Origin: Eledone cirrhosa | Taxonomy: Eukaryota | NCBI GenBank assembly: GCA_964016885.1 | Contig: OZ024741.1 | Coordinates: 136,090,001-136,154,000 of the forward strand | DNA length: 64,000 nt | Direction: 5' to 3' | Shown: positions 8,217 to 8,811 of the stretch, in pieces | How the letters are laid out: every line of letters begins with the position of its first letter | How positions within the stretch are numbered: position 1 is the stretch's first letter | Position numbers and translations under genes: made by a program | Notes under the pieces: generated by a model | The model's input: only the letters and a program-made list of their open reading frames with translations | What the model was told of the DNA's origin: nothing | Database searches by the model: none

Positions 8217-8446
8217 TAAGTATGTATGTATGTAAGCATTATAATAAATGTTCGGTAAACCCATACTTACATATATATATGTGTGCATGTATGTATGTAT
8301 ATACATACTACTGTACGTCTGTATACATATATGCATGTACGTATACATACTTATATTGAAGCATCAGCCGCACTAAGAGTGAGAAACGAAATTTCATTTT
8401 TGCCATTTATCGTTTTCGTTACGCCCGGCCGACTAACTCACTGGAT

Positions 8447-8494
8447 ATGCAAATTAGGCTGCTCAGCCGTTAATATGCATAAGGAAAGTATATA
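8447..8494 (+). promoter_or_regulatory. Candidate snRNA-type promoter cassette (octamer, PSE-like, TATA)
   Basis: ATGCAAAT at 8447-8454, CTCAGCCGTTAAT at 8462-8474, TATATA at 8489-8494. All three are conserved in the second copy (about 35929-35978, -). Confidence 0.35.
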
Positions 8495-8528
8495 CTTTCA
8501 AACGTTCAATCAACTGACAGGAAGGTAT

Positions 8529-8571
8529 ACGGTGCTGATGACAGCTAATAAGCTAGAAACTAGTACATCGT
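8529..8571 (+). ncRNA. Minimal type I hammerhead
   Basis: acggtg CTGATGA c agct aata agct a GAAAC ta GTA catcgt. Palindromic stem III ACTAGT. Confidence 0.82.
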
Positions 8572-8811
8572 TCCTTTGTCAGTGTTTAAAAAAATGGCAA
8601 CGATGGTTCCCGAACACAAACCGAGCATTATAATAAATGTTCGGTAAACCCGTACGTACATATATAGATGTGTGCATGTATGTATGTATATACACACTAC
8701 TGTACGTCTGTATGCATATATGTTTGTACGTATACATACTTATATTTAAGTATCAGCCCTACTAAGAGTGAGAAATGAAATTTCATTTTTTCCATATATA
8801 TATATATATAT

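Follow-up and report, generated by a model that had tools for sequence, protein, structure and literature searches.

Animal non-LTR retrozymes (PMC7229834; Cervera and de la Pena 2020) are built from short non-coding tandem units of 150-450 bp with a GC content below 50% and a type I hammerhead ribozyme, form highly self-paired predicted circles and co-occur with hammerhead-bearing Penelope-like elements (PLEs). Their transcripts have been proposed to be cleaved to monomers, ligated to circles and copied by PLEs (PMC7229834). Retrozymes of animals are found as abundant circular RNAs, and according to a 2020 review metazoan retrozymes seem to lack promoters (PMC7761336), while repeats of newts and schistosomes do possess them. 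In the schistosome repeats Sm-alpha and Sj-alpha, a promoter is followed by a hammerhead and each cleaved monomer carries the Pol III promoter at its 3' end, which makes tandem copies necessary for propagation (PMC6765202). The newt repeats are the Pol II variant of this layout (PMC6765202): satellite 2 of newts and salamanders, likewise a hammerhead repeat, has an internal snRNA-type promoter (Coats et al. 1994, as cited in PMC2220036) and is transcribed by Pol II (PMC2220036, PMC6765202). The design of promoter, hammerhead and regeneration through tandem copies has already been described in these schistosome and newt satellites (PMC6765202).

We analysed a 64,000-nt stretch of the Eledone cirrhosa genome (the window), in which an earlier note had described a partly duplicated retroelement with a hammerhead and a second, diverged copy, and had inferred an external snRNA-type promoter for it. 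The element is best read as an animal non-LTR retrozyme, a new member of a known group, as its unit length, GC content, absence of coding capacity and stable circular fold match the published description (PMC7229834). It shares with the described retrozymes the short non-coding tandem unit, the type I hammerhead, the low GC content, the self-paired predicted circle and the company of hammerhead-bearing PLEs, but has about 1.4 units and a single ribozyme per locus, lies in (TA)n and carries a promoter-like block. The family may already be among the further invertebrate retrozymes in the supplement of PMC7229834. The literature that we searched, mostly freely accessible and more recent papers, contained no account of retrozymes from cephalopods or of snRNA-type promoters in retrozymes of invertebrates, and the accessible parts of PMC6155905, PMC5680766, PMC10886601 and PMC4758252 hold nothing further on such promoters.

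A hammerhead retroelement at two loci

In copy 1 (8235-8795, plus strand), a non-coding repeat of 389 nt runs head to tail for about 1.44 units, with (TA)n at both ends, and copy 2 (35565-36207, minus strand) has about 1.35 units of 476 nt, a length slightly above the retrozyme range (PMC7229834) that includes a 43-nt extra segment and an internal TA run. The partial tandem and its second copy are thereby confirmed, with about 1.4 units at both loci, each of them embedded in (TA)n and containing one type I hammerhead. The direct repeats at each locus are the ends of the tandem unit. In copy 1, the left partial unit (8235-8405) is 5'-truncated and contains neither the promoter-like block nor the ribozyme, and the hairpin-rich right repeat (8624-8795) is 92% identical to it; identity between left and right repeats within the two loci amounts to 147/159 and 153/165. 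BLASTN searches with the unique cores matched these two known copies and no third one within the 64-kb window. The GC content of the units is 0.37 (389 nt) and 0.36 (476 nt), the single 124-codon frame of the element has no Pfam match, and the predicted circle is highly self-paired, with z-scores of -3.4 for copy 1 (40 shuffles) and -8.4 for copy 2, the latter value being inflated by the TA run. The element has no reverse transcriptase (RT) and GIY-YIG reading frame and is thus not an autonomous PLE. It shares (TA)n targets, hammerheads, partial tandems and inverted pieces with PLEs of the Hydra clade (PMC8557442), but unlike them it lacks an ORF and its ribozyme lies outside the terminal repeat.

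The copies had been described as ending at nearly the same point. Both do end at one terminal hairpin (8769-8792), but their 3' ends are about 14 nt apart, that of copy 2 within the hairpin, at the equivalent of 8781, and that of copy 1 just past it, at 8793-8795. Each 3' end shows AT microhomology to the (TA)n microsatellite, and that of copy 1 would mark a start of reverse transcription. For a purified PLE reverse transcriptase, initiation at neighbouring stem-loops within its RNA has been described (PMC11167929), which fits two 3' ends so close together at one hairpin. We considered by eye whether a conserved stretch at the 3' end could be a broken hammerhead core, and rejected this candidate as it has no stem I partner.

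The hammerhead of copy 1 (8514-8583, plus strand) lies very close to the position 8529 given for it before, with its inner stem I starting at 8530 and its core at 8535; the core of copy 2 is at 35890 on the minus strand. Stem I is extended and internally looped, the 4-bp stem II is mismatched at its base, by C.A in copy 1 and by U.U in copy 2, and stem III has 2 bp with a palindromic 2-nt loop. A U.U mismatch at the base of stem II is known from the axolotl ribozyme HHR_Amex2 (PMC7229834). The core elements CUGANGA, GAAA and NUH are exact and correctly spaced in both copies, which differ within the core at the variable N7 and at no invariant base, and the core pattern has seven matches in the window against 0.03 expected. 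Across three distinct sequences, namely the two copies and a 310-nt family described below, 32 of 33 cells of the stems are paired and both bases have changed in 4 of the 11 pairs; 5 of 500 shuffles reached the same level, and slid controls were 22-37% paired. All of these double-sided changes are contributed by the 310-nt family as a single outgroup. The hammerhead fold is thus backed by covariation and self-cleavage is predicted, with the cut in copy 1 after A8565. Rfam models, at both gathering and E-value thresholds, did not match the hammerheads of either copy or of the 310-nt family. In the minimum-energy fold, the hammerhead core is paired wrongly.

The block upstream of the ribozyme: predicted RNA hairpins and promoter-like motifs

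The three motifs that had suggested an snRNA-type promoter are present in copy 1, with the octamer ATGCAAAT at 8447, the PSE-like CTCAGCCGTTAAT at 8462 and TATATA at 8489, and all three are identical in the minus-strand copy, where the octamer is at 35978. The block that contains them (8445-8499) is identical between the copies at 52/55 positions, at least as conserved as the ribozyme (65/73), compared with 214/268 elsewhere. The block is better conserved than its flanks in the two copies compared (Fisher p=0.007 for the block against everything outside block and ribozyme, with its position fixed and gap events counted as differences). The 7.4% difference between left and right repeats within a locus provides an estimate of decay since insertion. 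Such decay alone would produce 4.1 differences in the block, where 3 are seen, and 19.9 in the rest, where there are 54 in 268. The sequence comparison thus indicates that the block is probably under constraint, on the basis of n=2 copies.

The same numbers can be read as sampling noise, or as exchange between subfamilies, in a block without special function. When the position of the compared segment is left free, the perfect run of 31 nt (p=0.19) and the best segment of 70 columns (65/70, p=0.31) both fall short of significance, and the stretch 8700-8775 is likewise identical at 69/76 positions between these two copies. Against this reading stand the position-fixed Fisher test, the direct adjacency of the block to the ribozyme and the two clean hairpins that it forms, so that we find an absence of function distinctly improbable.

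These hairpins are predicted from the circular folds of both units. In hairpin A (8447-8480, plus strand), the octamer is the 5' arm and the PSE-like motif provides the loop and the inner 3' arm; the outer 3' arm is an imperfect inverted octamer with one mismatch in copy 1 and two in copy 2. Nine of the ten outer pairs are possible in each copy, with pair probabilities of 0.74-1.00 (copy 1) and 0.68-0.96 (copy 2) and one base unpaired in each. Hairpin B (8484-8499, plus strand) is a perfect 16-nt palindrome, identical in both copies, with TATATA at its centre and loop. In both copies the three motifs all map onto these two hairpins, so that RNA structure can explain them together. Moreover, stem I of the hammerhead reaches upstream of the transcription start proposed at about 8520 (8514-8519 in copy 1, further in copy 2), so that the folded RNA includes sequence from upstream of this start. 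The block therefore most likely has a structural role in an animal non-LTR retrozyme and is kept mainly as two predicted RNA hairpins, a reading towards which we lean with modest confidence, and the octamer, PSE and TATA would then look largely incidental in a TA-rich genome.

Several observations fit this structural reading less well. No compensatory change occurs in hairpin A or B between the two copies, and the loops are as conserved as the stems, which structure alone does not require. All three differences within 8445-8499 fall in the outer 3' arm and none in the octamer arm, as protein binding to the octamer would predict, in numbers too small for a test. Folds of the isolated 111-nt region around the block are no more stable than those of shuffled sequences (z-scores of -0.61 and +0.46). 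Finally, the order and polarity of the motifs, with an octamer, a CCGT core, a TATA and a start at the 5' foot of stem I, fit an snRNA-type promoter.

By chance, an octamer is expected in 3-5% of units of this size, and a loose octamer-CCGT-TATAWA pattern, written after the element had been seen, occurs in 0.2% of 20,000 unit shuffles. A similar pattern fits one of the eight other octamers in the window (28432-28497, minus strand), an unrelated place that serves as a chance control, and TATATA occurs 217 times in the window outside long microsatellites. Rfam found no snRNA gene and ARAGORN no tRNA in the 64-kb window, and no mollusc PSE was found in the literature search. On the opposite strand, the snoJ33 model gave a weak match (E 0.019 and 0.39) that falls far below its cut-off and was taken as chance.

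Compared with a human-type promoter, the block has the same order of octamer, CCGT-containing element and TATA-like motif, but its spacing is short, the 3' half of the human PSE is unmatched, T-runs occur in the copied unit and the motifs coincide with hairpins. In the human PSE, CC is at -62/-61 and GT at -60/-59, followed by G-53 and A-52/A-51 (PMC9652321). The CCGT at 8467 matches the first of these positions, while G-53, A-52 and A-51 are unmatched in both copies, a comparison with the vertebrate form only, as invertebrate PSEs differ. By the human numbering (PMC9652321), CCGT would set the start at 8529 and TATA at -40. The TATATA is accordingly off-position. In such promoters, TATA sits near -30. 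From the TATATA, the start would fall at about 8519, a mismatch of about 10 nt with the human geometry, and the distance from CCGT to TATA is 22 nt instead of about 31, which bears out the caveat already made that the spacing is shorter than in vertebrate U6.

The promoter had been taken for one of the U6/H1 type (type 3) for Pol III, with a start at about 8520 and carried along by read-through. The order of octamer, PSE-like motif and TATA fits it, TATA+30 falls on the purines 8519-8521, and the 84-bp H1 core shows that octamer and TATA can lie close together (PMC11340601). The positioned TATA receives a weak point in its favour from the 310-nt family, where a TATAA lies 50 nt before the hammerhead core, compared with 46 nt here. 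The Pol III promoter of Sm-alpha and Sj-alpha is tRNA-derived and internal, and differs from an octamer/PSE/TATA promoter. Schistosomes do, in any case, have a Pol III promoter ahead of a hammerhead (PMC6765202). The T-runs speak against Pol III. Copy 1 has a T5 run at 8397-8401, a potential Pol III terminator inside the copied unit, whose counterpart in the right repeat is a T6 at 8786-8791, and a further T4 follows at 8413. The occurrence of the T5/T6 at the same place in both repeats puts this run in the template RNA and implies that the copied RNA continued through it, as the earlier note had said that copying the promoter would demand; since the 3' end of copy 1 also lies beyond the T-run, this copy does not represent a terminated transcript. 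Copy 2 has only T3 runs at the equivalent position, and its sole run of T4 or longer, a T5 between the PSE-like motif and TATA, could be decay after insertion. The transcribed unit would in all contain oligo-T in both copies, although the terminator threshold of the host may differ. With the CCGT-to-TATA distance too short for the human type, with TATA at the centre of a perfect palindrome in a TATA-rich genome, and with the block lying outside the duplicated part, we consider a U6/H1-type Pol III promoter very unlikely. We also rejected a simple Pol III SINE of 270 nt running from 8520 to the T-run, as both copies include the upstream block and one ends beyond the T-run.

Regeneration of the promoter by the partial duplication, which had been suggested as well, fails on the anatomy of copy 1, where the duplicated part (8235-8405) lacks the block. 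As this duplication cannot regenerate a promoter, an array with at least two ribozymes would be needed.

A Pol II promoter of the snRNA type would escape part of these difficulties, because T-runs do not stop Pol II. In such promoters the octamer and PSE lie about 40-70 bp upstream of the start (PMC9652321), and a start at 8520-8529 would bring the PSE-like motif into this range, with a PSE match that is partial. The same retrozyme would then use the block as satellite 2 of the newt does: each unit of an array would start a transcript just before the ribozyme, the promoter of the next unit would ride on the 3' end of the monomer, and the hairpins may be a second, overlapping function. The newt precedent (PMC2220036, PMC6765202), the constraint on the block, the perfect octamer in both copies and the rarity of the loose pattern in shuffles are in its favour. 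By the human rule, a Pol II promoter of this kind has no TATA downstream of the PSE, a rule that is not strict in insects (PMC9652321, PMC11892584), where lepidopteran telomerase RNA promoters are used by Pol II despite a TATA-like box that follows the PSE (PMC11892584). Here the distance from 8519-8520 to the cut can be set beside the start of the newt transcripts. Ovarian satellite-2 RNAs of the newt reportedly start 46-47 nt before the cut site, which is the same distance, and the promoter elements of satellite 2 are said to have been identified as an octamer and a PSE in the work of Coats and colleagues of 1994. The promoter of the newt was demonstrated by experiment, whereas in this invertebrate element there is a resemblance of motifs, with an added TATA-like motif. 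Only the CCGT core fits the human PSE, the hairpins explain the block, the 310-nt sister family does without it, and the pattern arises once more by chance in the window. We regard the Pol II promoter as unlikely, though still a serious rival. The broader idea, that an invertebrate retrozyme independently gained a SNAPc-dependent snRNA-type promoter (Pol II, less likely Pol III) with a start at the hammerhead's foot, while its bases also form two hairpins in the circular RNA and a single sequence thus acts as DNA promoter and RNA structure, seems doubtful to us but worth entertaining.

Neighbouring elements and a possible life cycle

The 310-nt family (4861-6480, minus strand) consists of four identical units and a 100% identical inverted segment, flanked by (TA)n. 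Its five type I hammerheads have the geometry of those of copies 1 and 2, with a long extended stem I, and it contains neither an octamer, even with one mismatch allowed, nor a CCGT. By its sequence it appears to be a young retrozyme array, whose four tandem ribozymes could produce circles. The 3' junctions of the two families look alike, with TTCCAAT in the 310-nt family (4861) and TTCCAT in copy 1 (8795) before (AT)n, and this pyrimidine-rich motif is a possible shared start signal for reverse transcription, at a tiny n.

A 5'-truncated PLE at 21058-22514 (minus strand) has the motifs of an RT followed by those of GIY-YIG, with a CxCX5C linker, CxxC and CxH, which are marks of the Hydra clade (PMC8557442), and we consider it Hydra-clade-like. 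It has 403 open codons, a hammerhead core (21123) whose stem II has a U.U at its base, a 3' end in (TA)n, the target in which Hydra-clade PLEs insert (PMC8557442), and a 37-nt inverted copy of this end across a TA spacer (21001-22514, minus strand). By eye it resembles Hydra-1_Obim of Octopus bimaculoides without being of the same family. Its ORF has no Pfam or PDB sequence match and 55 protein relatives with uninformative names, and exact probes from this PLE and from the block had no match in the supplement of PMC8557442. BLASTN within the window showed no sequence link from the cores of copies 1 and 2 to the 310-nt family or to the 3' region of the PLE. With no sequence common to the element and this 3' region, the PLE at 21 kb is only an example of a possible mobiliser.

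Other sequences of the window are of related kinds. Short element ends are duplicated in inverted orientation on either side of (TA)n spacers, as is typical of PLE-type insertions, at 8814-9061, 29630-29977 and 10279-10862; one (TA)n-spaced inverted duplication adjoins copy 1, and the family at 10279 has half a hammerhead core. In a near-perfect inverted repeat at 10567-10702, each arm contains a hammerhead-like core (10642, plus strand; 10627, minus strand) that resembles the stem II region of the 310-nt family. A tRNA-like SINE family, which may resemble octopus SINEs, is abundant (59556-59952, also at 1044, 4016, 19520, 32145, 45040, 47040 and 51200). Together with the likeness of the PLE to Hydra-1_Obim, it would tentatively point to a host among the cephalopods. 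Remnants of a pogo/Tigger-like DNA transposon (HTH_Tnp_Tc5, DDE_1; 26971-27922) and of a Tc1-like one (HTH_SB, HTH_Tnp_Tc3_2, DDE_3; 54466-55545) are present, and a Pfam scan of 129 of the 131 filtered reading frames, the other two being identical to another frame of the 310-nt unit, found only domains of DNA transposases and no host gene. Among the best 150 of 264 matches in an Rfam E-value scan of the whole window, almost all were microRNA models on microsatellites.

From the anatomy of the copies we infer cleavage, circularisation, a mobilising enzyme, a polymerase and a cause for the constraint on the block, which for the structural reading would combine as follows. Somewhere else in the genome, a master array that contains two or more ribozymes would be transcribed, most simply by Pol II read-through. 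Cleavage by its hammerheads would release a monomer of about 390-480 nt for circularisation by a host ligase. A Penelope-like RT/GIY-YIG protein would nick (TA)n and begin to copy at the terminal hairpin, which lies some 200-230 nt downstream of the cut site. Reverse transcription about 1.4 times round the circle would then yield a dead-end copy, namely a partial tandem in which one ribozyme is intact. Copies 1 and 2, each with a single ribozyme, cannot cut out a monomer and would be such dead ends, derived from masters elsewhere. A Penelope-like element probably does the copying.

Within the window, (TA)n targets and a style of ribozyme are common to both retrozyme families and the Hydra-like PLE, which bears on the proposal that PLEs mobilise retrozymes. 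If the promoter is not real, the element is an ordinary retrozyme. If it is real, it would be convergent with the design of the newt and would provide a compact promoter for a poorly tooled group of animals; it would extend the design of salamander satellite 2 to a distant phylum and would answer how this retrozyme family gets transcribed.
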